Shown here: positions 4,221-64,000 of the stretch, in pieces
Layout: every line of letters begins with the position of its first letter
Numbering within the stretch: position 1 is the first letter of the stretch
Source of the DNA: Candidatus Zipacnadia bacterium
GTDB taxonomy: Bacteria > Armatimonadota > Zipacnadia > Zipacnadales > UBA5352
Direction of reading: 5' to 3'
NCBI GenBank assembly: GCA_029821635.1
Contig: JALGSW010000042.1
Span: 19,202 to 83,201 of the forward strand
Length of the DNA stretch: 64,000 nucleotides
Notes under the pieces: generated by a model
Told to the model about the DNA's origin: nothing
The model's database searches: none
The model's input: only the letters and a program-made list of their open reading frames with translations
Position numbers and translations under genes: made by a program

Positions 4221-4262
4221 GGCAACGGCCGACGCATCCAAACGGCGGATGCGTCGCTCCAA
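4221..4262. repeat. family D element: 9-bp stem palindrome with AAACGGC loop (GACGCATCC-AAACGGC-GGATGCGTC), flanked by AACGGC repeats
   Basis: ggcaacggccgacgcatccaaacggcggatgcgtcgctccaaacggcaacggcg. Confidence 0.8.
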
Positions 4263-4325: not shown

Positions 4326-4973
4326 CTAATGCGGCTGGAAGAAGGCGGACAGGCCCTCGTCGCCGCCGGCCTGAGAGGGGCGCTCGCGGGGGTGGCAGGA
4401 GAGGCACCACTGTGCGCTCTCCAGGTGCCACGCTCCGCAGCCGGGGCACTGGACGAAGCCGTGCTGCGCACGCCAGACCGCCAGCTTCGCTTGATACAGC
4501 AGCAGGCGCTCGAGGCGCTCGCCCATCTCCCCCTCGACATCACTCACCAGTTCCAGGATCTCCCGGATGCGCTCGGGCGGCACGTGAAGCGCGTCCAGCT
4601 CATCCTGCGCGGGCGCCGCCGGACCCTCAGGCTCCGCGGGCGCGAGATCATCCATCCGGCGGCCGATGCCGGCGCTGCTGGGCCGGATCTCGTCCACCAC
4701 GTCCTCACCCAGCGCCTCGTTGACGCGCCCGATGATGGCCGGCGCGTCGAGCTGCAACTGCTGGGCGCGCGGCGCCGACTCGCAGCGGATGTAGAGCGTC
4801 CTCCCGCGCAGGCTCACAACGTAGGTGTGCAGGGCATACCACTCGCCCGCCACGCGCGGCCAGACCATCATGCACAGGGACTCGCGCGACTCGTCGAGCA
4901 GCCCCACGCTCTTGAGGAAGACCTGCAGCGCGTGGCCGGCCTGTTTGATCGGATTGCTGCGGTCGTTGGGCAT
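4326..4973 (-). CDS. DUF721 / DciA-like zinc-ribbon protein (gene family typically found between recF and gyrB)
   Basis: ORF 4326..5102 trimmed to internal MPNDRSNPIKQ... Position immediately downstream of recF and sequence character fit the DUF721 family. The N-terminal extension of the ORF consists of G-rich palindromic repeat sequence. Confidence 0.55.
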   Translation of the reverse strand: MPNDRSNPIKQAGHALQVFLKSVGLLDESRESLCMMVWPRVAGEWYALHTYVVSLRGRTLYIRCESAPRAQQLQLDAPAIIGRVNEALGEDVVDEIRPSSAGIGRRMDDLAPAEPEGPAAPAQDELDALHVPPERIREILELVSDVEGEMGERLERLLLYQAKLAVWRAQHGFVQCPGCGAWHLESAQWCLSCHPRERPSQAGGDEGLSAFFQPH

Positions 4974-4994
4974 GCTTTCCCAGCTCTTCCTGTC

Positions 4995-5080
4995 CGGCGC
5001 GCAACGGCGCCCCTCCCCCCGACCCCCTCCCCCTGGAGCGCGCAAACGGCAGCGCGCTCGGCGGGAGAGGGGGAGAAAGG
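4995..5080. repeat. family E: nested G/C-rich palindrome (CCCCTCCCC … GGGAGAGGGGG) enclosing GAGCGCGC-AAACGGC-AGCGCGCTC
   Basis: Read directly. Lies between the DUF721 gene and recF. Confidence 0.7.
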
Positions 5081-5117
5081 CAACGACACGCGCCCCCTTC
5101 ATCTCCCTGCGCGACGT

Positions 5118-10155: not shown

Positions 10156-11613
10156 TTACTCGAAGGCGGCCTTGAGGTCATTGATGAGCCAGAGGACCTG
10201 CTGGTCCTCGTCTATGAGTTCCGCGACCTTATTGTATGAGTGCAGCACGGTAGAGTGGTCGCGGCCGCTGAAGTACTCGCCGATGCGTGCGAGGGAGTTG
10301 TCGGTGAGCTCGCGGCAGAGGTAGATCGCAACCTGCCGGGCCCACGCGATATCCGCCGAGCGCTTCTTGGAGACGATGTCGTCCTCGGATACGTCGAGTT
10401 CGCCGGCGACGAGCGCGACGATCTCGGCGACGGAGACGCGTCGCTCGCTGGTGGAGGTGGAGTAGTCGCCGATGATGTCCTCGACCAGCGCGCGGGTGAT
10501 GTGCACGTCGTTGAGCGAGGCGTAGGCACAGATCTTCAGCAGCGCGCCCTCGAGGACGCGGACGTTGAACTCGATCTTCGCGGCGACGTACTCAAGGATG
10601 TCGCGCGAGAGGGGCACGCCCTCGGCCTGGGCTTTCTTTTCGAGAATGGCCACGCGCGTCTCGACGTCCGGAACGCGCAGGTCGGCGACGATGCCCATCT
10701 CCAGGCGCGAGCGCAGACGGTCGTTCATCAGCTGCAGGTGGCGGGGCGGGCAGTCGGAGGCGATGACGACCTGACGGTTGCTCTCGTAGAGCGTGTTGAA
10801 GGTGTGGAAGAACTCCTCCTCCGACGCAGGCCCCTCGATCGCGGCGATGAACTGGATGTCATCGACCAGCAGCCAGACATCGCCCGAGCGGTAGTTGCGA
10901 CGGAAACGGTCGATGGTGTTGTCGCGCATGCACGAGATCATGTGGTTGACGAATGCCTCGGCAGAGATGCACACGACCTTCACATCGGTGCGGCTGGAGA
11001 TGATGGAGTGGCCGATCGCCTGGATCAAGTGGGTCTTGCCGAGCCCGGAGGCGGAGTGAATGAAGAGCGGGTTGTAGGCCTGGCCGGGCGACTTGGCGAC
11101 CTGGAGCGCGGCGGCGTGGGCGAAGCGATTGCAGTCCGCCACGACGAAGTTCTCGAAGGTGTACTTCGGGTTCAGCGGCGACGAGCGCAGCTCGCCGGTG
11201 GCGTCGGGGATGGGCGAGACGGGTGCAGGGCTGCGCGCCGGCTTGACCGCGAGGGCCTGCGGTGTGGGGGAGCGTTCGGCGGGCTGCGCGGGGGCCTCCT
11301 CGACCAGCCGCCGCTCGGTGGGGCTGGGAGCGGGCTCGGCCACAAGCTCCTCGGGCAGCACCTCGACGCGGATCGTGATGTCGTGCTGCGCGACCTCCGA
11401 GACGCACGCATTCATCACGCTCACATGGTGGCGCTCGAGCCAGTCCTTCGCGAACTCGTTCACGACACCCAGGTGAAGGCGATCATCGTTGAGGCCCAGG
11501 GCAGTCGCGTTGGTCAGGAAGCCGTCGTACGTGGCCGGGCTGACCTTCTCAGCAAGCAGCGGCAGGCTCGCGCGCCAGATCTGCTCCCCGGACTGCTGTG
11601 TCTCGATTGCCAT
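10156..11613 (-). CDS. dnaA: chromosomal replication initiator protein DnaA
   Basis: DnaA domains present: N-terminal, linker, AAA+ with GLGKTHL Walker A, and C-terminal DNA-binding region. The track ORF begins at a TTG (11622). First ATG (MAIETQ) at 11611-11613. Confidence 0.9.
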   Translation of the reverse strand: MAIETQQSGEQIWRASLPLLAEKVSPATYDGFLTNATALGLNDDRLHLGVVNEFAKDWLERHHVSVMNACVSEVAQHDITIRVEVLPEELVAEPAPSPTERRLVEEAPAQPAERSPTPQALAVKPARSPAPVSPIPDATGELRSSPLNPKYTFENFVVADCNRFAHAAALQVAKSPGQAYNPLFIHSASGLGKTHLIQAIGHSIISSRTDVKVVCISAEAFVNHMISCMRDNTIDRFRRNYRSGDVWLLVDDIQFIAAIEGPASEEEFFHTFNTLYESNRQVVIASDCPPRHLQLMNDRLRSRLEMGIVADLRVPDVETRVAILEKKAQAEGVPLSRDILEYVAAKIEFNVRVLEGALLKICAYASLNDVHITRALVEDIIGDYSTSTSERRVSVAEIVALVAGELDVSEDDIVSKKRSADIAWARQVAIYLCRELTDNSLARIGEYFSGRDHSTVLHSYNKVAELIDEDQQVLWLINDLKAAFE

Positions 11614-11759
11614 GGATGACAACCCGTCCTTTGCCGTGAATGTGGGCGCGCAGCGGGAACCTCGGAAGGCCCCTCCGCGGGGCGGGCGGGTGCCGCTCGT
11701 AGTGAGCGATCAGTGGTGCGATCGGTGCTGTCGATGAATGCGCGCGAAGCGCGACTGCG

Positions 11760-12110
11760 ATGAGTTTCGGTGGAAAACATCGGCCTTCGTCTGCGGCCGG
11801 CACGGCCCCAGGCCGTGTCTTTCTTGACCGGCGAGGTTTTCCACATCGTTATCCACACTTGTGGAAAACCTTCGTCACCCTCCCCACGTGGGCAGAGTAT
11901 ACCAGAACCCAAATCGCAATGCAAAGGGAATCTGGGAAATCCCCTGATTCCGTGATACATGGCTATGAGAGGCCTCTACGGGCAATATGGGACTGCGTTG
12001 GGGGCCCCGGCAGGCGGTGCAGAGGAAAAAAATCTCCTGTCCATAATGTTGAAAACCTTAACGATGGTGGAGAGACGAAACGCCCATTCTGCGACGAAAA
12101 CGTGTCAGTC
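11760..12110. other. candidate oriC / dnaA autoregulatory region (DnaA boxes + AT-richer stretch)
   Basis: 640-nt non-coding gap upstream of dnaA. It contains the box cluster, further GTGGAAAAC and TGTCCATAA variants, and locally lower GC (gaggaaaaaaatctcctgtccataatgttgaaaacc). Confidence 0.5.
11837..11868. promoter_or_regulatory. cluster of three DnaA boxes (TTTTCCACA, TTATCCACA perfect, TGTGGAAAA inverted)
   Basis: Read directly: ggTTTTCCACAtcgTTATCCACActTGTGGAAAAcc, ~225 nt upstream of dnaA. Confidence 0.7.
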
Positions 12111-12262
12111 TCGTGCTTTCCGGCGGACGCATGCTGCTGAAGGGAGCAACGAGCTCGGCCTGCCCGCCCGCTGCCGCGCGGTTTGTGGGAAGGCGGAGTG
12201 TAACCTCCGCAAAGCGCGGGGACACTTCAGAAGCTCCTGGGCCCGACGCCCGGGACCGCCCC

Positions 12263-13687
12263 TCAACGATCAGACACCAGTTGAGGGACCATATCCCGCA
12301 CCTCTTGCACACCGCGTCCCGCTTCCTTCATGATTGCGCTGATGGGCTTGTCAGTTGGCGTATCTCCCGGCAGCTTCAGTTCCTCAATCAATGTATCAGC
12401 GCTTACGCCGAATGCCTCGGACACCTGCTCGAGGGTCATTGTGCCCCGGATCTGTCCCGGTGTCAGTGCCGCCGGCTCCCCGTCGCTCCCAGTCCCGGCT
12501 TCAGGCCTGGCCGCCGGGACCTCTTCCGGTTGTGTGGACGGTGTCCCCAGGTGCTGAGCAATGACCGTCTCGATCTCCTCGACGTGGCGGCCTGCCCCGT
12601 GCATGATGCTGTTGATGGGGCGATTGGCGTCAGTGTCCTCGGGAAGACCGAGTTCAGATAGGATCTGATCAATCGGCATGCCGTAGGCTTCCGAAATCTC
12701 ACTGAAGGTCATGAAACCTCGAATGTTGTCGGCGGACAACTCCCCTCCGTATTCGACCAGTTCAGTCATGGACTCAGGCAATGACCGCCAGGTGCCCGTC
12801 GCCTTGGTTGTGGCGACTACTCCGAAGAACAGCGCCAGGGATGCCACGCCCAGCACGACCGGAGAGAAGGCGCGGCGCCCAATCTTGAACTGCAGAGCAC
12901 CCGGGACAGGACAGGCATTCACGCACTCGCCGCAGGTAATGCACTCGCCCGTGGTCACCTGCTCCATCGCCTCGACCCGAATATCCATCGGACAGACTCG
13001 GTCGCAGACATGACAGTGTACACACGACTGCTCATCACGAACAACACGAGTTGCCCCAATCCTGCTCAGAATGGCCAGAAAACCGCCCAGCGGACAAAGG
13101 TAGCGACACCACAACCTGTCCACGAAAAGGGAGCCAATGACGCTGACCAGCAGCAATGCCGCGCCGACGAGGAACTCCGAACGGATCTCCCCGAAGCCAC
13201 CTGCCAGATGCGCGTAGGTGGCCCATGGGTCATAGGGGGAGAAGACGAGGTCGGCTGTGACCCAGGTAAGGCCGATCACTACTACAAGGACCGCAGTCTT
13301 CAGCCATCGAATACTGCCATCGATGGCATTGTCATGGAGGGGCAGTCGCCACTTCGCCTTCCGCCCGATAGTCGCGGCAAACTCCTGCATCGCTCCCAGT
13401 GGGCACATCCAGCCACAGAATGCTCTGCGAAAGATCAGGGCGACCAGGACGGTACCTGTCAGCAGGATGATTGCGGACGGCTGGGTGCGCTTGATGAACT
13501 CGCCCCCTGCCAGCGTTTCGCGTAGCGTTGCGAGACCGCCGAGTGGGCAGAGAGCATGAATAGTCGGGGCCCCATCAGGTCTCTCGCCGCACTTCTGGTG
13601 TAGGAATGCGACATAGGTAATGGCTGCCCAGATCACGACAAGAGCTGAGATACGCAGAATCTTGAAGAACACGGGCTTTCTTTTCAT
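12263..13687 (-). CDS. NapH/MauN-type membrane-bound polyferredoxin (two 4Fe-4S motifs) with C-terminal tandem ~60-aa repeat
   Basis: ORF 12263..13891 trimmed to MKRKPVFFKI (ATG 13685-13687). FCGWMCPLG and WCRYLCPLG motifs between TM helices. CVHCHVCDRVCP and CITCGECVNACP ferredoxin motifs. The C-terminus carries two copies of (F/T)MT(F/L)xE(I/V)SEA(Y/F)G...LPxDT...PI(N/S)xIM. Confidence 0.7.
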   Translation of the reverse strand: MKRKPVFFKILRISALVVIWAAITYVAFLHQKCGERPDGAPTIHALCPLGGLATLRETLAGGEFIKRTQPSAIILLTGTVLVALIFRRAFCGWMCPLGAMQEFAATIGRKAKWRLPLHDNAIDGSIRWLKTAVLVVVIGLTWVTADLVFSPYDPWATYAHLAGGFGEIRSEFLVGAALLLVSVIGSLFVDRLWCRYLCPLGGFLAILSRIGATRVVRDEQSCVHCHVCDRVCPMDIRVEAMEQVTTGECITCGECVNACPVPGALQFKIGRRAFSPVVLGVASLALFFGVVATTKATGTWRSLPESMTELVEYGGELSADNIRGFMTFSEISEAYGMPIDQILSELGLPEDTDANRPINSIMHGAGRHVEEIETVIAQHLGTPSTQPEEVPAARPEAGTGSDGEPAALTPGQIRGTMTLEQVSEAFGVSADTLIEELKLPGDTPTDKPISAIMKEAGRGVQEVRDMVPQLVSDR

Positions 13688-13821
13688 TGAGAAGACTCCC
13701 CGGTCACTGCGTGTTGTCCAATGGGATCGCGAGCTATATGGACGGTATTCCACACGGCATCTGGCTCCGCCTTCAGAGGGCAGAGAGCAACAACTGCGAC
13801 GGCAACGACGACGACGACCGT

Positions 13822-13852
13822 AACAGGATTCGGCGCTGCGCGCCGACAGGAT
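13822..13852. repeat. family C element (AACAGGATTCGGCGCTGCGCGCCGACAGGAT)
   Basis: Core hairpin GGCGC-TGC-GCGCC flanked by the direct repeats ACAGGAT. Followed by gacaacggcacaggataaggc. Confidence 0.85.
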
Positions 13853-13924
13853 TGGACGACAACGGCACAGGATAAGGCACCGGCCGGGCAAGGGGGGACG
13901 GCGAAGGCGGCAAGGGCCCGCGAG

Positions 13925-15277: not shown

Positions 15278-15374
15278 GGTGAGTCGCCTCCGGGAGCAGC
15301 GTCGTTCGCGCTGGGGGGAGGGTTCGACGGGGCGGGCGGCGGGGCCTTCGGGGGAACGGCGCCTCTCCCCCCTC

Positions 15375-15440
15375 GTCCCGAAGGATCGCGCCGTTTGCGA
15401 TCCGAGGGAGAGGGGGGCGGGGGGGGAGAGGCCGCGTTTG
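15375..15440. repeat. family E-like nested palindrome (…CCCGAAGGATCGCG-CCGTTTG-CGATCCGAGGGAGAGGGGGG…)
   Basis: Between the divergent sulfatase-like and C45 genes. The inner loop is the reverse complement of CAAACGG. Confidence 0.6.
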
Positions 15441-16548: not shown

Positions 16549-16600
16549 AACAGGATTCGGCGCTGCGCGCCGACAGGATGGCGCTGCGCGCCAGCAGGAA
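16549..16600. repeat. family C element plus a truncated second copy
   Basis: aacaggattcggcgctgcgcgccgacaggatggcgctgcgcgccagcaggaa. Confidence 0.85.
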
Positions 16601-16699
16601 ACTGCACAGGCTACGGCGACGGCAGGGATCGGGGGCGGGGGGAGAGGCCCGTGCGCACAGGACTGATCAAGGCGCCCGCCGAATCGAGAGAGTGAGACT

Positions 16700-17828: not shown

Positions 17829-18782
17829 ATGAATGAGACCGGAGACGGGCAATCCACACGGGCTGCCGGATTCGCGGCGGCCCTTTTCAGCGGCGCGGTC
17901 ATGGGCGTCACGTGGCCGCTGCAGAAGTACGTGCTCGCGCAGGGCGTCGTCGGCCCGGCGACGATGCACTGGCTCAACGTGATCGGCCTCGTCGCGATCA
18001 TGGCGCCGATCTTCCTGATCCGCCATAGAGGCCGGCTGCGCTACCCCGGCTTCTCCCCGCGCTGGCTGCTGCTGGTGGGCCTGGTCGCCTGTGTCATGCA
18101 CTTCTGCCGCAAGTGGGGCGTGAACGAGACCTCCTCCACCACCGCTGCGGTGGCCGAGCGCTCCGAGGTCGTCTTCGTCTTCATCCTCTCCTACCTGATC
18201 CTGCACAAGCCTGTGCGGCCGATCGGGTGGCTGGGAACGGTCCTGGTACTCTTCGGGACGATCACCGTGGCGCTCGTGGGCTCGGCGGAGCTGCACTTCC
18301 ACCCGCTGGGGGTCATCGCGCTGGCGATCACCGGCCTGACTGTTGCCGTCAACGCGACCATCATAAAGACGAAGCTCAGCGGCATCCCCAACGAGCTGAT
18401 CATCCTCGGCAGCATGGCGGTGCAACTGGTCGTATTCAGCGCGTGGGTGACCGGCGGTGGGCTGCTGCCCGAAGTGCGGGCGTTGATGGGCGTCCCGATG
18501 CTGGCCGCGCTGGTGGGCATGGGCTCGGTGGTCTGGGGCGGGAATCTGGCGATCTACTACTTCGCGCTCAAGCACGCGCCGATGTGGGCGGTGCGGATGC
18601 TCACGCTCAGCGGCCTGCCGGTGGCGACGCTCGCGGACCTGTGGGTGCTGCACGAGCCGGTGACGACCGGGCACGTCATCGGGCTCGTGGCGGCGATGGT
18701 CGGGGCGGGGCTGGTGATCCTCGCGGAGCGCAACGGCTGGAACGACGACGACGGGCTGGAAGCCCGTCCCACAAACGGCTGA
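17829..18782 (+). CDS. EamA/DMT family transporter (10 TM)
   Basis: Hydrophobic 10-helix pattern with two EamA halves. The last 10 codons (DGLEARPTNG) and the stop are supplied by a REP-like family B element. Confidence 0.8.
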   Translation: MNETGDGQSTRAAGFAAALFSGAVMGVTWPLQKYVLAQGVVGPATMHWLNVIGLVAIMAPIFLIRHRGRLRYPGFSPRWLLLVGLVACVMHFCRKWGVNETSSTTAAVAERSEVVFVFILSYLILHKPVRPIGWLGTVLVLFGTITVALVGSAELHFHPLGVIALAITGLTVAVNATIIKTKLSGIPNELIILGSMAVQLVVFSAWVTGGGLLPEVRALMGVPMLAALVGMGSVVWGGNLAIYYFALKHAPMWAVRMLTLSGLPVATLADLWVLHEPVTTGHVIGLVAAMVGAGLVILAERNGWNDDDGLEARPTNG

Positions 18783-19756: not shown

Positions 19757-19830
19757 CAGGATTCGGCGCTGCGCGCCGACAGGATCCCGCCCTGCGGGCG
19801 GGAACAGGAAACGGCACAGGATACGGCAAG
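19755..19830. repeat. family C element (overlaps the TAA stop of EamA-2) followed by the palindrome cccgccc-tgc-gggcggg and AACGGCACAGGATACGGCA
   Basis: ttaacaggattcggcgctgcgcgccgacaggatcccgccctgcgggcgggaacaggaaacggcacaggatacggcaagg. Confidence 0.85.
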
Positions 19831-19889: not shown

Positions 19890-19945
19890 CGTTTCTCCCC
19901 CTCGCCGGAACGGAGAGGGGGTCGGGGGGAGAGGTCAATAGAGGG
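19890..19945. repeat. family E-like element (CTCCCCCTCGCCGGAACGGAGAGGGGGTCGGGGGGAGAGG) just upstream of the aminotransferase RBS
   Basis: Read directly. G-rich arms with an AACGG-containing loop. Confidence 0.6.
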
Positions 19946-31210: not shown

Positions 31211-33073
31211 ATGCGCATGAAGCTTGTACTGAGCGCCGACAATCAGCCGGCGGCGAGCGTGGTCATCGAGGCCGACTCGCCGCCGGCCGTTTCTTTCGCC
31301 GCGAGTGAGTTGAGTCGCTACCTCGCGATCCTCACCGGCGGGCGGTTCCCTGTGTGTGAGGGGGAGGCGGCGGAGGGGGCGGTGATACGGCTGGGCACGG
31401 CGCCTCACCCCCCCGGCCTCCCTCTCCCTGGCGTCGCAGACGACGCGACGCAAGCGGGAGAGGGGGGAGAACGGCAGACGGGCTGGAAGCCCGTCCTACA
31501 AACGACAAACGGCACGACGCTGGCGCGTGGTTCGTACGCGTGGCGGGTGCATGAGGGTGGGGTGGAGGTCGTCGGGGAGCGGCCGGGGGCGGTGCTGCAC
31601 GCGGTCTACGCGCTGCTTGAGACGATCGGCTGCCGGTGGCTGCACCCGCGCGATGGCGGGGAGATCGTGCCGCGCATCCCGCGCATCGAGCTGGCTCTCG
31701 GCGAACACGCCGCGCAGCCCGAGCTGGCCCACCGCGAGCTGACGAACCTCCACTCGATCGACCGCGAGTACCCCCTGCACATCGACTGGATGGCGAAGAA
31801 CCGCCTCAACCGCTTCATGGCGTTCCTCAACGTGGAGGGCTCGCAGGAGGCGTTCGCGGAGTTCATCGAGCCCGAGCTGGCCGCGCGTGACATGGACGCG
31901 ACCCTCGGCCATCACAGCTTCCGCTTCCTGCTGCCACCCGAGCAGCACTTCGCCGACCATCCGGAGTGGTACGCGCTCATCGACGGGGAGCGCAGCCCCG
32001 ACGGGCAGCTCTGCACGTCGAACCCGGAGGTCGCCGAGCGGGCTGCCGAGCGCATCTGCGAGCTGTTCGACGCCCACCCGACCGTGGAGATGTTCGGCCT
32101 GTGGCCCAATGACGGCTTCCGCTGGTGCGAGTGCGACGAGTGCGCGAAGCTCGAGCCGCAGATGCCCTCGCGCTTGCGCTCCGACGCCCCGCGGCGCACC
32201 GACACCTACCGGCTCTTCGTGAACGCAGTTGCCGAGCGCGTCGCGCGGGCGCACCCCGACCGGCGCATCGGCGCGCTGGCCTACGTCAACTACGCCGACG
32301 CGCCCGAGGCGGTGCGGCCCGCGGACAACGTGGCGGTGTGCTTCGCGCCCTTCCTCCGCTGCCTCAAGCACCCGCTCCGCCCGGACGTGGAGTGCGAGCG
32401 GCTCAACGCCGCGTACGCGCGGGAGTTCGAGCGCTGGCGCGGGATGGTCGCGGGCGACCTCTACCTCTTCAGCTACCTCTCGCAGATACACACGCTCTCG
32501 CTGCCCTACCCGATCCACACGATGCTGCCGGCGAACTGGCAGTGGCTGATTGACGCGGGCTGCGACGGCTTCGTGATGGAGTTCGTGCCCGAGGAGTGGG
32601 GCGCGTTCGGCGCGAATCTCGAGCTGATCGCACGGCTCGCGTGGGAGCCCGACACCGACGCGCAGGCGTGGCTGGGGGAGCGTGACGAGCTGATCTACGG
32701 CCCGGCGGCGGCGGTGATGGGCGACTACCGGCGGGAGCTGGCTGAGGTCATGATCGCGGGCGGCGGCTGCACCGGGCACTACGACGTGACGTGGACGCGC
32801 GGAGCCGACGAGCGAACGCTGCGGGCAGCGCTGGACGCGCTCGGGAAGGCCCGGGCGCTCGCAGCCACCGGTGAGAAGCGGCACTGGCAGGCGGCGGAGC
32901 AGGCGTGGGTAGGGCTGGAGCTGCTGATGCGCGCGGGCGAGTGGCAGCGCCTGCTGCGCGACGGCCTGCAGGACCGCGCGGACGAGGCGCTGGAGCGCAT
33001 GGTGGCGTTCGCGTCGGAGCAGGCGGACAGCGGCGCGGTGGACGCGGCGAGGTATGAGCGGTTGCTCAGCTAG
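31211..33073 (+). CDS. DUF4838 domain protein (glycoside-hydrolase-like, GH20/GH67-type N-domain)
   Basis: N-terminal pattern of DUF4838 proteins (…ASELSRYLAILTG…, …LHAVYALLETIGCRWLHP). Contains an in-frame ~43-codon insertion made of palindromic repeat families E+B at 31392-31520. Confidence 0.65.
   Translation: MRMKLVLSADNQPAASVVIEADSPPAVSFAASELSRYLAILTGGRFPVCEGEAAEGAVIRLGTAPHPPGLPLPGVADDATQAGEGGERQTGWKPVLQTTNGTTLARGSYAWRVHEGGVEVVGERPGAVLHAVYALLETIGCRWLHPRDGGEIVPRIPRIELALGEHAAQPELAHRELTNLHSIDREYPLHIDWMAKNRLNRFMAFLNVEGSQEAFAEFIEPELAARDMDATLGHHSFRFLLPPEQHFADHPEWYALIDGERSPDGQLCTSNPEVAERAAERICELFDAHPTVEMFGLWPNDGFRWCECDECAKLEPQMPSRLRSDAPRRTDTYRLFVNAVAERVARAHPDRRIGALAYVNYADAPEAVRPADNVAVCFAPFLRCLKHPLRPDVECERLNAAYAREFERWRGMVAGDLYLFSYLSQIHTLSLPYPIHTMLPANWQWLIDAGCDGFVMEFVPEEWGAFGANLELIARLAWEPDTDAQAWLGERDELIYGPAAAVMGDYRRELAEVMIAGGGCTGHYDVTWTRGADERTLRAALDALGKARALAATGEKRHWQAAEQAWVGLELLMRAGEWQRLLRDGLQDRADEALERMVAFASEQADSGAVDAARYERLLS
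31478..31520. repeat. family B element inside the DUF4838 CDS (in frame), with AACGAC/AACGGC tail
   Basis: gacgggctggaagcccgtcctacaaacgacaaacggcacgacg. Confidence 0.8.
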
Positions 33074-55175: not shown

Positions 55176-55199
55176 GACAGGCTGGAAAGCCTGTCCTAC
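55176..55199. repeat. family A palindromic element; supplies the TAG stop of the giant gene. A degenerate copy lies at 55088-55110
   Basis: gacaggctggaaagcctgtcctac. Confidence 0.8.
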
Positions 55200-59930: not shown

Positions 59931-59990
59931 ACGGCCGACGCATGTAAACGGCACATGCGTCGCTCCGAACGACAACGGCGGAACGGCGAA
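59931..59990. repeat. family D element (GACGCATGT-AAACGGC-ACATGCGTC) with AACGAC/AACGGC tail
   Basis: acggccgacgcatgtaaacggcacatgcgtcgctccgaacgacaacggcggaacggcgaacggc. Same architecture as 4221-4262 with a compensatory change in the stem. Confidence 0.8.
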
Positions 59991-59994
59991 CGGC

Positions 59995-60879
59995 TCACTC
60001 GCAGATCGCCTGAAGCTCCGCGAGGCGTTCGGGTGACTGGCGCTGCGCGTCCGGCAGCGGGTCGGGTAGGCCCAACCATGAGTACTTCCCGCCCGTCGCC
60101 GGGTTGAAGGGCAGAAGCTCAATCCGCTCCACGCCGAGGCTCCTTGCCAGCGTCGCGATCTCGCGGACCGCCTCGTCCGTGTCATTCACGCCCGGGATCA
60201 GCGGCACGCGCACCAGCACGTCCGCGCCGCTCGCGAGCAACGCCCGCAGGTTCGCGATGATCTGCTCGTTCGGCGCGCCCGTGTACGCCTCGTGGGCCGC
60301 CGAGTCCGCCAGCTTCAGATCGTAGAGCCACAGGTCCAAGGCCTCGGCGAGGCGCTCGATCGTCTCCCATGGCGCGAGCCCGCAGGTCTCCAGCGCCACG
60401 TGGATGCCCGCGTCGCGGCAGAGGCTCGCGATGGCGTGCGCGAAGTCGGCCTGCGCGGTCGGCTCGCCGCCGGTGATCGTCACCCCGCCGCCCGTGCGCG
60501 CGAAGAAGGGCGTCAGGCGCGCTGCCATGTCGGCGATCTCGCCCGCGGTCGCCTCGCGGCCCTTGACCTCCAGCGCGCCCGCCGGGCAGGCCTCGATGCA
60601 CGCGCCGCACAGCGTGCAGCGCGCGCGATCCTCCGGGGCGATCAGCCCCGGTCGGCGGATGCGCTGCGGGCAGGCATTCACGCACGCGCCGCAGTGTGTG
60701 CAGCGGGTCTCGTACCAGACGATCTCGGGCGCGAATGCCTGCGACTCGGGGCTGTGACACCACGCGCAGTGCAGCGGGCAGCCCTTCAGGAAGACGGTCA
60801 TACGCACGCCGGGTCCATCGTGCAGCGCGGTCTGGTCGATATCGAAGATCGTGCCGGTCACATCGCGCAAGTCCTTCAC
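59995..60879 (-). CDS. glycyl-radical enzyme activating protein (radical SAM with ferredoxin-like insert)
   Basis: GCPLHCAWC (CxxxCxxC) followed by CTHCGACVNACP and CTLCGACIEACP motifs. GTG start overlaps the GRE stop (GTGA) with GAGGAG upstream. The rest of the track ORF is antisense overlap. Confidence 0.8.
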   Translation of the reverse strand: MKDLRDVTGTIFDIDQTALHDGPGVRMTVFLKGCPLHCAWCHSPESQAFAPEIVWYETRCTHCGACVNACPQRIRRPGLIAPEDRARCTLCGACIEACPAGALEVKGREATAGEIADMAARLTPFFARTGGGVTITGGEPTAQADFAHAIASLCRDAGIHVALETCGLAPWETIERLAEALDLWLYDLKLADSAAHEAYTGAPNEQIIANLRALLASGADVLVRVPLIPGVNDTDEAVREIATLARSLGVERIELLPFNPATGGKYSWLGLPDPLPDAQRQSPERLAELQAICE

Positions 60880-63164
60880 CAGCCCAACTCCTCGCGCGCG
60901 ATGACTTCCTCCTGCGCGTGCTTGCTCAGCAGCACGAAGGGCACGAGGTAGCCGCCGATGCGCACGAACAGGTCGCGGTGCGCGTCGGGATTCGCCTGCG
61001 CCGCGCGCATCTGCTCGGTGGAGGCGAGGTTGAACTGAAGCTGGTAGGCGCCGAGGTCCATCGCGGCCTCGGTGAGGCCCTTGAGCGCGTCGGCGCCCTC
61101 GTCGGTGTCGAGCACACTCGCCTGGAAGCGCACGTTGCAGGTGGTGCCGCCGAGCCCGCGCGAGTTGTCGAACTCGTCGGTGATCGAGCGTACCAGCGCC
61201 GGGAAGCCGTTCGTCTGCACGCCGGTGCAGTTCATGATCGAATTCGCCAGCGGCTCGCCCGCGAGGCGGCCGTCGGGTGTGGCGGGCGTGCGCTCGCCGT
61301 AGGCGATCCAGACGGTCCAGCCGAGGAAGCCGGGCAGGAACGGGCCTCCGAGGTAGTTGCGGTTGCCCTCGACCAGGTCCGACCAGCCCCCCGCGACTTC
61401 GCCGAAGAGCCGGTTGCACTGGGCATCGTCGGTCCCATGCTTGGGGCAGTCGCGCTTGATCGCGCGGCGCAGGTCGTCGTGGCCGCGGAAGTTGTCGCGG
61501 ATCGCCGAGCGGAAGTTGTCGAGCGTGTACTCGCCGCGCTCCTCGACCAGCGTCTGCACCGCCGCGAGCGCGTCCACCACGTTCGACGCGCCGACCGCCT
61601 CGGGCTGGATGAAGTTGTAGAGCGCGCCGCCGTCGGACATGTTCCGGCCGCTCTCGATGCAGCCCTCGATGAGGCACGAAAGCAGCGGGAAGGGCCGGTG
61701 GATCGACTGCAGCCACAGGTCGCGGTTGCACTGGATCACCGCGCCATCGACCGCATGGGCCAGCACGCGCTCGTAGGCGTGGCGGAGTTCGGCGTACGTT
61801 GTAGGACAGGCTTTCCAGCCTGTCAATGTCCTACGAACGGCCCAACTGGCGGGCGGGTCGGTCAGCCGCAGGCCGACGTCCGCCGCGAAGTCATCGGCAT
61901 GGCCCTTCTCCGGGTGCACGCCGCCGAAGAGCGCGTACTCCAGGCACATCGCGAGGTTGACGTAGGGCCATGCGACGTGCGGGTTGCTGCGGCCCATGAT
62001 CGAAGTCTCGGTGCAGGTGCTGGGCAGGTGATCGACCGCGTGCTCGAAGGGCACGCCGTGCCGCACGAGGCCCTTCGTGATTTGGTCGGAGTTGAAGATC
62101 GATGGCTGGCCCTTGCCGTTGCGCAGCAGGGCCATCGCGTGGCGCATGAACTGCGGATCGATGTCCGCGTGCCACGAGATGTCGATGCCGGGGAAGTACA
62201 TCTCCACCCGATCGGTCAGCTCGAGGATGCGGAACGAAAGCTCGTTGGTGCCGTCGGAGCCGTCGGGCTTGCGGCCGCCGATCACGAGAATCACAGCGCT
62301 CATCGACGGGCCCTGGAACTCGTTGCACTTGATCATGAGCTGGGCCAGCAGGTCCTCGGTAAGCGCCTCGTCGAGCGTGCCCGCATCGCGTTCGGCCTCG
62401 TAGAAACGCCGCAGCCACTGATCGATGCGCCCCGGGCCGAAGCAGTGGTGATGCTGGGAGTTCTCCAGCGCGCAGCCCATGAACATGAACCAGCCGAGCT
62501 GGATCGCCTCGCGGAAGCTGCGCGGCGGCTCGTGGGCGATCTGCCGGCAGGTCGCGGCGGCCTCGCGCAGGTCATCGGCCCACGCGGGATCGGTGGCGTC
62601 GTCGGCCATCTCCTGCGCGAGGTCGGCGTAGCGCTCGATGAGCCGCTGCAGGCCGCCGAGGGCGATGCGCGCGGCCTCGTAGAAGTGCTGCTTCGCAGGC
62701 GTCTGCGGGTCGTCGGGCCGCAGCGCGTGCTCGGCGTCGTCGATGCGCTCCATGATGCCGCCGAGGCCCTGCTTGCACGCGGTCGGGTAGTCCGGCGCCA
62801 TGTGCCCCTCGGAGACGAAGCCGCGCCACTGCTCACGCCCGAGGTAGGCGTTCGCCTCGGCGATCTCCGCGGCGAGGGCCTCATCGGCGTGCGTGTTCGG
62901 GTGCCGGCCGACGAGCCTCTCGCCCTCGCGGATGCGCACGGGCATCTGCTCGAAGAGGTGCGCGACGGCCTGCGCCACGCGTATCTGCCGGCGCGGCTCA
63001 CCCTCGGTGGCGCGGAAGCTCTCGGCCATGATGATCGCGCGCTCGTCGAAGGCGCCCCCGTCGGCGAGGACGTCCTCGCGCAGCGCGCGCGACCACTCCG
63101 AGAGCCCGTCGGGGCCTACGGGGCGGGGCAGGGCGTCGGTTGTACGATCTGCGACGGTTGCCAT
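60876..63164 (-). CDS. glycyl radical enzyme (PFL-like / 1,2-diol-dehydratase-lyase family)
   Basis: ORF 60876..63644 trimmed to MATVADRTTD (ATG 63162-63164, GAAGGAGA RBS). Cys-loop LIEGCIESG. Glycyl motif FVRIGGYLVPF near the C-terminus. Contains an in-frame family A repeat at ~61795-61840. Confidence 0.8.
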   Translation of the reverse strand: MATVADRTTDALPRPVGPDGLSEWSRALREDVLADGGAFDERAIIMAESFRATEGEPRRQIRVAQAVAHLFEQMPVRIREGERLVGRHPNTHADEALAAEIAEANAYLGREQWRGFVSEGHMAPDYPTACKQGLGGIMERIDDAEHALRPDDPQTPAKQHFYEAARIALGGLQRLIERYADLAQEMADDATDPAWADDLREAAATCRQIAHEPPRSFREAIQLGWFMFMGCALENSQHHHCFGPGRIDQWLRRFYEAERDAGTLDEALTEDLLAQLMIKCNEFQGPSMSAVILVIGGRKPDGSDGTNELSFRILELTDRVEMYFPGIDISWHADIDPQFMRHAMALLRNGKGQPSIFNSDQITKGLVRHGVPFEHAVDHLPSTCTETSIMGRSNPHVAWPYVNLAMCLEYALFGGVHPEKGHADDFAADVGLRLTDPPASWAVRRTLTGWKACPTTYAELRHAYERVLAHAVDGAVIQCNRDLWLQSIHRPFPLLSCLIEGCIESGRNMSDGGALYNFIQPEAVGASNVVDALAAVQTLVEERGEYTLDNFRSAIRDNFRGHDDLRRAIKRDCPKHGTDDAQCNRLFGEVAGGWSDLVEGNRNYLGGPFLPGFLGWTVWIAYGERTPATPDGRLAGEPLANSIMNCTGVQTNGFPALVRSITDEFDNSRGLGGTTCNVRFQASVLDTDEGADALKGLTEAAMDLGAYQLQFNLASTEQMRAAQANPDAHRDLFVRIGGYLVPFVLLSKHAQEEVIAREELGW
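61801..61824. repeat. family A palindromic element located inside the glycyl-radical-enzyme CDS, in frame
   Basis: gtaggacaggctttccagcctgtcaatgtcctacgaacg. Translates on the gene strand as …RRTLTGWKACPTT… without a stop. Confidence 0.8.
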
Positions 63165-63201
63165 GATCGGTCTCCTTCGCGTGAATGCGAACGACAACAG
63201 C

Positions 63202-63245
63202 GACGGGCTGGAAGCCCGTCCTACAAACGACGTAACGTCAACGAC
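63202..63245. repeat. family B element with AACGAC tail, between the GRE start and the sulfatase stop
   Basis: aacgacaacagcgacgggctggaagcccgtcctacaaacgacgtaacgtcaacgacg. Confidence 0.85.
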
Positions 63246-63249
63246 GTCG

Positions 63250-63312
63250 TTCTCCCCCTCTCCCGCTTGAAACCGCGTCGTTTGCGGTTTCCAGGGAGAG
63301 GGGGCCGGGGGG
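63250..63312. repeat. family E nested palindrome: CCCCCTCTCCC-[GAAACCGCG-TCGTTTG-CGGTTTC]-GGGAGAGGGGG
   Basis: tctccccctctcccgcttgaaaccgcgtcgtttgcggtttccagggagagggggccgggggg. Confidence 0.75.
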
Positions 63313-63327
63313 TGAGGTAGCCTTACG

Positions 63328-64000
63328 CTAGTTAAACACCGCCCGCTGCTCCCGGATGATGCGCCGCTGGCCCTCGGCCCAGGGGTCGAGGAGCTCGCGC
63401 AGATACCAGACCTCTTCCGGATTCGCGTCGGCGAGGTTGTTCGCCTCGCTGAAGTCCTCAGCGATGTTCGACAGCCACACCTCGGGCACCGAGTCGTCGT
63501 TGTCGCGCAATCCTCCGTTGAGCACCAGCTTCCAGTCGCCGCGGCGGATGGCGGTCTGGCCCGCGAGGTGCCAGGCGATCCAGTCGTGGGGATTATCCGC
63601 CCCGTTGACCACCATGTCCAGCAGCGAGACGCCGTCGAGGTCATAGCGGGACAGATCGCCGCCCACCGCCTCGAGCATCGTGGGGAAGATGTCCATCATG
63701 ATACCCACTTCCGAGGACACCTGCCCGCCGGCGATGGTTCCCGGCCAACTCATGATCGCGGGCTCGCGGACGCCGCCGTCCCAGCAGGTGCCCTTGTGCC
63801 CCTTCAGGCCGCCGGTGGTGCCGCCGTAGTAGGGGTCCCTGGTGCCATCGAGCCAGTTGCGCGTCTCCCGCGACGGGCCGTTGTCCGACGAGAAGAAGAT
63901 GAGGGTGTCCTCGCGGATGCCCTCGGCCTCCAGCGCCGCGATGATCCGGCCCACGCCATCGTCCATGCACGCGATCATTGCCGCCATGATCTGCTTGTCC
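63328..64000 (-). CDS. sulfatase (arylsulfatase family), C-terminal part; N-terminus beyond window edge
   Basis: FFSSDNGP and GHKGTCWDGGVREPAIMSWPG sulfatase signature regions. The reading frame stays open to the window edge. Confidence 0.8.
   Translation of the reverse strand, partial: DKQIMAAMIACMDDGVGRIIAALEAEGIREDTLIFFSSDNGPSRETRNWLDGTRDPYYGGTTGGLKGHKGTCWDGGVREPAIMSWPGTIAGGQVSSEVGIMMDIFPTMLEAVGGDLSRYDLDGVSLLDMVVNGADNPHDWIAWHLAGQTAIRRGDWKLVLNGGLRDNDDSVPEVWLSNIAEDFSEANNLADANPEEVWYLRELLDPWAEGQRRIIREQRAVFN

Follow-up and report, generated by a model that had tools for sequence, protein, structure and literature searches.

A gene for a DUF4838 protein in Candidatus Zipacnadia bacterium carries within its reading frame 111 nt of DNA derived from two kinds of dispersed repeat, and remains intact across them. 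The gene (31211–33073, + strand) lies in a 64,000-nt stretch of contig JALGSW010000042.1 (assembly GCA_029821635.1), referred to here as the window, whose positions are used throughout. The insert occupies 31403–31513 on the + strand and, as judged from its sequence, consists of a G/C-rich intrastrand triplex motif (TM) of the BoxC/PIT/TM(ECO) type followed by a GTAG-tagged REP hairpin. We consider it best explained, with a probability of about 0.8, as a tolerated passenger insertion into a permissive surface loop of the protein, its length filtered to a multiple of three; four alternatives share the small probability that is left. Both element families are already known, as is the in-frame residence of REPs, from the Rickettsia palindromic elements (RPEs) and from intragenic GTAG REPs. 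Two points seem not to have been described in the literature searched: that TM/BoxC motifs can be translated, and that a single protein loop is reused serially.

The insert and its host protein

The open reading frame (ORF) encodes 620 residues from ATG 31211, and its product was studied through Pfam, homologs and predicted structure. The database protein P0001 is identical to the product read from the second ATG, at 31217. The original prediction, made on the letters of the window, had placed a composite repeat of 129 nt (43 codons) in frame at 31392–31520. The frame does continue across this interval without a stop codon, and the peptide is exactly as quoted there. In-frame residence thus stands, but the extent was too generous: the whole repeat-derived insert covers 111 nt, codons 65–101 in phase 0, and encodes PHPPGLPLPGVADDATQAGEGGERQTGWKPVLQTTNG, a run of 37 residues rich in Pro, Gly and Thr.

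Read along the + strand, the insert opens with the third-strand arm of the TM, CCTCACCCCCCC (31403–31414), the complement of which, GGGGGGGTGAGG, corresponds to the second G-rich arm of the published motif. The C-rich stem CCTCCCTCTCCC (31417–31428) pairs with the G-rich stem GGGAGAGGGGGG (31456–31467), and the two enclose a first loop of 27 nt (31429–31455). Nested in this loop is a smaller hairpin, with GCGTCGC at 31431–31437 and GCGACGC at 31445–31451 on either side of the loop AGACGAC; in other TM copies the inner stems differ while the loop, A(A/G)ACG(A/G)C, is the same. The TM part corresponds to codons 65–89. A spacer, AGAACGGCA (31468–31476), typical for Armatimonadota copies though not for TMs generally, leads to the B-type REP (31477–31499), formed by the hairpin GACGGGCT-GGA-AGCCCGTC and the tag CTAC (GTAG on the opposite strand). 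The hairpin has an 8-bp stem (31477–31484 with 31488–31495) and a 3-nt loop, and the insert ends with the REP tail AAACGAC AAACGGC (31500–31513). The stem positions, together with folding z-scores of -3.1 (DNA) and -2.8 (RNA) for the segment, bear out the nested palindrome and the second hairpin with an AACGAC/AACGGC-type tail that had been proposed. A search of the window against Rfam returned no match at the gathering threshold, and the permissive mode gave sub-threshold, microRNA-like noise; the segment is therefore not a known RNA family.

Homology to DUF4838 relatives spans the full length of the host protein, and structure comparison likens its fold to GH115, GH20 and GH84 enzymes. The AlphaFold model built from the alignment has a mean pLDDT of 89.9 and a pTM of 0.90. 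Values of pLDDT below 50 occur solely at residues 66–103, the loop between the β-strands 58–63 and 109–114, where the 37 Pro/Gly/Thr-rich residues would form a disordered surface loop that is tolerated by the fold.

The match to PF16126 (DUF4838; E=3e-52, Pfam) is limited to residues 150–502, which would suit a broken gene, that is, a dead N-terminal remnant split by the insert from a shorter gene starting downstream. This explanation is already contradicted, and we assign it next to no probability. The first 64 residues are conserved in all homologs, with F29, A30, E33, L34, Y37, T42 and G43 invariant or nearly so, and in the confident AlphaFold model they form strands and a helix packed against the strands that follow the insert. 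The frame is kept in every ortholog, and outside the insert the host gene is under purifying selection, with dN/dS about 0.3 (0.29–0.51 against seven orthologs; Nei-Gojobori, 574 ungapped codons).

Affiliation of the two elements

The two components had been put forward as repeat families, E and B. Repeat families they are, and neither is new. The published TMECO pattern is CCCTCNCCC N3-6 GGGNGAGGG N3 GGGNGAGGG (Holder et al. 2015, Nucleic Acids Res, PMC4666352, where earlier work on the motif by Bachellier and by Hoyne/Maher 2000 is cited). Read on the strand opposite the gene, E is CCCTCTCCC-loop-GGGAGAGGG-(AGG)CCG-GGGGGGTGAGG; it shares all three arms and the CCG second loop with TMECO type B. 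The C-rich and G-rich arms are both present, CCCTCTCCC at 31420–31428 pairing with GGGAGAGGG at 31456–31464. The second G-rich arm is present in imperfect form, the complement of 31403–31428 being GGGAGAGGGAGG-CCG-GGGGGGTGAGG, with 9 of 12 mirror positions. Like the published TMs, E is multi-copy, mainly intergenic and situated in a locally hypervariable spot.

Other properties set E apart. Its first loop is 27 nt long and holds a nested hairpin, whereas the pattern allows 3–6 nt, and its stems measure 10–12 nt rather than 9 nt. TMECO is 'always located intergenically' in E. coli K-12 (Holder et al. 2015, PMC4666352), whereas E lies inside coding sequence; the four other window copies are extragenic. 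The host belongs to the Armatimonadota, while the published census of the pattern is proteobacterial (PMC4666352). A cross-phylum scan of one genome per species with the E core pattern, in which the third arm was not demanded, gave hits at over 114 genome loci spread across many phyla. Of 116 copies elsewhere, 96 had the third arm, CCTCACCCC, just upstream (background frequency 0.6%), and about 25 had long first loops. By its match to the motif, E is a BoxC/PIT/TM(ECO)-type element whose first loop holds a nested hairpin, and it may form an intrastrand triplex.

Element B is, by the same kind of comparison, a GTAG-tagged REP hairpin with AAACGRC tails. At 31477–31495 it is a short G+C-rich imperfect palindrome of the REP kind (20–40 bp), with a hairpin of 19–20 nt, and GTAG stands directly beside the stem (CTAC at 31496–31499, hence GTAG on the minus strand). 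The hairpin with its tag is present in 10 copies in the 64 kb, against 0 expected from 100 shuffles. The tag is CTAC in eight of these and CCAC in two, and eight copies lie outside genes or at gene ends, mainly between genes or at 3' ends, one of them giving a stop codon. The copy in the DUF4838 gene is identical at 30/30 nt to 63202–63231. REPs wholly within ORFs have been described, including clusters that encode 43–82 residues (Di Nocera, De Gregorio, Rocco, BMC Genomics 2013, PMC3733652), and the same work reports different REPs at about the same recB site in two Xanthomonas species. B differs from the GTAG REPs of that study in standing beside a TM, in its AAACGRC tails and in its host, Armatimonadota not being among the phyla covered (PMC3733652).

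The proposal that the DUF4838 gene is the second intragenic case in the window also held up. A B-type REP at 61801–61824 (− strand) lies in frame in a gene for a PFL-like glycyl-radical enzyme (60879–63167, −) and encodes approximately AVRRTLTGWKACPTT; these residues, about 15 in number, are absent from the solved homolog 6vxc, where they fall on an alignment gap. Around this hairpin lies an extended palindrome, CGTTCGTAGGAC…GTCCTACAACG.

The classic case of repeats residing in frame is that of the RPEs (reviewed in PMC10969869). The likeness is one of behaviour: palindromic repeats occur in frame in unrelated genes and also outside genes, the host gene is intact, the extra peptide is compatible with the fold, and the insert is placed by the model on the protein surface. 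RPEs, however, are about 150 bp long, A+T-rich and CGTC-tagged, each with a conserved peptide, whereas E and B are short, G+C-rich members of two other families, B with the tag GTAG, and their peptide is not conserved, the frames differing among orthologs. Neither sequence relatedness to RPEs nor a conserved peptide was thus found. Clusters of differing small palindromes with short spacers, as at 63202–63319 and at the orthologous locus L001, also recall BIMEs. BIMEs, in contrast, are extragenic and have regularly alternating REP orientation, whereas E and B are co-oriented and in coding frame.

The loop in orthologous genes

We aligned 35 homologs, built a tree from the columns outside the loop, and compared the DNA at seven orthologous, syntenic loci (L001, L003–L008). 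Between the strand '…IRL…' and 'RGxYxWRV', the loop has 5 residues in the outgroup and distant homologs and 8–13 in intermediate clades. In an inner clade of nine Armatimonadota orthologs it has 17–95 residues, made of TM and REP DNA. Since distant homologs have a 5-residue loop and those at middle distance one of 8–13 residues, the segment is an insertion; a segment of equivalent length is not general among DUF4838 homologs, in keeping with the original prediction.

The composition of the loop varies from one ortholog to the next. The closest relative (L003, protein P0002; 83% identity overall, 87% over ungapped columns) has a decayed E with nested hairpin and no B. L004 and L005 have the E core without an inner hairpin and with first loops of 3–5 nt, L007 has the left arm of E only, plus a hairpin, L006 has two tagged hairpins and no E, and L008 has a short loop. 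At L001 (ortholog P0006), an E with a different inner hairpin, a CTAC-tagged hairpin and four tandem 36-nt hairpin units follow one another, all in frame; the tandem units (L001 10310–10455) read ATGGGCGGGCAGGGAAGCCCGCCCCTCCTTGACGGC with the tag CTCC and encode (GMGGQGSPPLLD)x4. E is old, because it is common to the inner clade of orthologs, and B is recent in this lineage, because it is absent from the closest relative. By this distribution the TM is the older component and the REP the younger, so that of the composite E+B first proposed the presence of both repeats stands, while their arrival in a single insertion event does not. Stronger conservation of the TM than of its flanks could not be demonstrated among the orthologs, the nucleotide identity of the flanks being already 74–89%.

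Growth of a native low-complexity linker by slippage, with a merely secondary likeness to intergenic repeats, would be favoured by the short tandem units of the tails (AACGGC/AACGAC), which could slip, and by the four tandem 36-nt units in L001. It is largely refuted, and we regard it as very improbable: the identity over 30/30 nt is with an intergenic copy, the three-arm TM architecture is common to many phyla, and distant homologs show no trace of a linker.

Repeats are a classic source of mis-assembly, and the window protein is known from one assembly only, as would be expected had repeat reads been misjoined into the gene. Such an artefact is scarcely credible in view of the orthologs. Both flanks are parts of one orthologous gene, joined to the insert precisely in phase. 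TM-derived DNA is found at the same site in at least five orthologs from independent samples, and a sixth (L006) has REPs there. Moreover, two independent metagenome assemblies give the 330-nt insert of P0006 without a single base difference, which speaks against misassembly as the source of such inserts.

All orthologs examined stay in frame, while the frame in which the repeats are read is not constant. In L004 the left half of E is in another frame and an extra A restores the original one, a compensated frameshift; the tagged hairpins likewise are read in frames that differ between the window gene and L001/L006. As TM and REP are read in differing frames, the peptide itself is unconstrained and only the frame is kept.

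These observations bear on the possibility that the element is adaptive, acting through DNA or mRNA structure (a translational pause between the N-terminal strands, an mRNA stabiliser, a recombination or hypermutation hot spot) or as a variable Pro/Gly loop selected because it diversifies the enzyme surface. Such a role would fit the repeated remodelling of this same loop in relatives, from 5 to 95 residues, the long retention of the TM in the clade and the stability of the structures in silico. It would also fit the raised local variability reported at TM loci in E. coli (Holder et al. 2015, PMC4666352). We nevertheless consider it unlikely. The peptide frame differs among orthologs, the TM and the REP are degraded in, or missing from, close relatives without sign of harm to the gene, and the same elements are mainly intergenic. 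No terminator- or promoter-like site was found within the repeat segment of the host gene, and in earlier work PIT/TM elements had neither promoter nor terminator activity (Holder et al. 2015, PMC4666352).

As a passenger insertion, the segment would have the following history. A TM palindrome would have entered a β-strand loop of the N-terminal domain in an ancestor of the Armatimonadota clade, and a small hairpin would later have appeared in the first loop of the TM. In the window lineage, a GTAG-tagged REP with AAACGRC tails would then have joined directly downstream, arriving presumably by RAYT-type single-strand transposition (RAYT/REPtron model: Nunvar 2010, PMC2817692) or by recombination. 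The survivors would be variants with a net length that is a multiple of three and no stop codon, a filter easily passed because the G+C-rich elements are open in five of six frames. The peptide would be neutral. Remodelling in relatives likely reflects TM-associated local indel instability and accumulation of REPs beside existing repeats, and the loop would keep changing through TM-linked replication trouble and REP clustering.

Several points weigh against this account. TM motifs have no known mechanism of spread, and no link to a transposase was found for them (Holder et al. 2015, PMC4666352). No RAYT transposase gene (PF01797-type) was present among the 20 window ORFs scanned; the argument for mobility of the repeats accordingly relies on how many copies there are and how alike they are. 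For the insert in the window gene, a single assembly is the source (P0001 has one member, on one contig), and its translation and its retention in the protein are predicted from the gene. Finally, the short loop of L008 retains CCCCTCCTGAACGGC, which could be a remnant, so that loss and gain are not fully separable in the mid clade.

Copies in the window and in genes of other phyla

The E core occurs at four loci in the window, with a variant at 15370–15431, where 0 are expected; four of these five TM copies, all but the one in the DUF4838 gene, are extragenic. An intergenic B-type REP at 63202–63224 (+) adjoins a TM with nested hairpin at 63254–63319 (−), the pair lying between the stop of ORF 63328–63987 (−) and the start of the PFL-like gene. 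A TM without nested hairpin is found between genes at 19897–19936 (−). Two further TMs, both with nested hairpins, were considered as additional intragenic cases and ruled out on account of better start codons downstream: that at 5008–5073 (+) lies upstream of ATG 4973, probably the true start of ORF 4326–5102 (−), and that at 15370–15431 (−) lies upstream of GTG 15277, the probable start of a sulfatase gene, which has a GGAGG ribosome-binding site.

Other REPs of the window adjoin genes closely. The REP tail at 18750–18782 provides the TGA stop of ORF 17829–18782, and the REP at 55176–55199 occupies the whole 22-nt gap between two co-oriented genes (stop 55196, next start 55173). A third kind of hairpin stands free at 4230–4256 and 59936–59962, where CTCC follows it, and is nested in TM loops at 5036–5059, 15385–15410, 31431–31451 and 63273–63293. 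Its loop A(A/G)ACG(A/G)C is conserved, and its stems vary compensatorily, for example CGACGCATCC/GGATGCGTCG against CGACGCATGT/ACATGCGTCG. The hairpins at 16565–16610 and 19771–19820 have unlike stems (GATGGCGC…GCGCCAGC and GATCCCGCCC…GGGCGGGAAC) and near-identical flanks (gcgcgccgacag … aggaaac.gcacag), and may represent another small repeat family. Elsewhere in the window, the gene at 10159–11622 (−) encodes DnaA (Pfam Bac_DnaA, E=9e-61). The adjacent stretch 11700–13900, which is probably a replication origin, has no GC3-supported ORF and contains a perfect DnaA box, TTATCCACA, within a small inverted repeat at 11848–11869.

Residence of TMs inside genes was followed in two independent samples of 116 and 134 copies, the second a metagenome sample (loci L009–L122 from the first scan and L123–L242 from the second, in which AGAACG was not demanded). 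In both, about 5% of the TM copies are situated well within ORFs, flanked on either side by sequence with a coding signature. The in-frame loci are L025, L058, L056, L072, L069 and L021 in the first sample and L128, L153, L157, L220, L232 and L241 in the second, and several of the intragenic TMs fall within Pfam domains or linkers. Host genes encode nonribosomal peptide synthetase (NRPS) adenylation domains, an AMP-binding enzyme, DnaE, KsgA, a DEAD helicase, a CO-dehydrogenase flavoprotein and a DUF7133 protein. A further host is the acyl-CoA dehydrogenase gene of a Variovorax isolate, in which the TM peptide stands opposite a gap in PDB 8r1e.

Two apparent regularities of the first sample were not borne out by the second. 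All nine intragenic TMs of the first were in sense orientation (9/9), whereas the second had 2 sense and 5 antisense; a sense bias was therefore rejected, having arisen because the search pattern biased the sample. An AGAACG tail, which the first pattern had demanded, is not conserved when it is not demanded and was dropped as a part of the TM. The tail is found after the TM in the window and also in many copies from Armatimonadota and Gemmatimonadota; in Armatimonadota, spacer arrays resembling (AACGGC)n surround the TMs and REPs, as at L041. From these occurrences, the tail is a sub-family trait or the Armatimonadota AACGRC spacer.

A wider proposal, which we offer tentatively, is that TMs are not strictly extragenic, about one in twenty, in many phyla, being in frame inside a gene, and that an intragenic TM serves as a long-lived, fast-changing 'landing pad' for nesting hairpins and REPs. 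Bound up with it, and equally speculative, is the idea that a non-B-DNA motif drives length evolution of protein surface loops, of which the DUF4838 loop would be the best-resolved example.

The DUF4838 gene offers a natural experiment in which repeats of non-coding origin turn into protein sequence. A dated series, from an old TM through a nested hairpin to a recent REP, lies within a single loop of an enzyme modelled with confidence, and the relatives show every intermediate, the compensated frameshift included. The TM/BoxC and GTAG REP families are thereby extended to the Armatimonadota, and TM motifs, intergenic in E. coli, can apparently lie in a translated frame. Such inserts inflate apparent protein diversity, produce spurious low-complexity 'domains' and can mislead gene callers and alignments.

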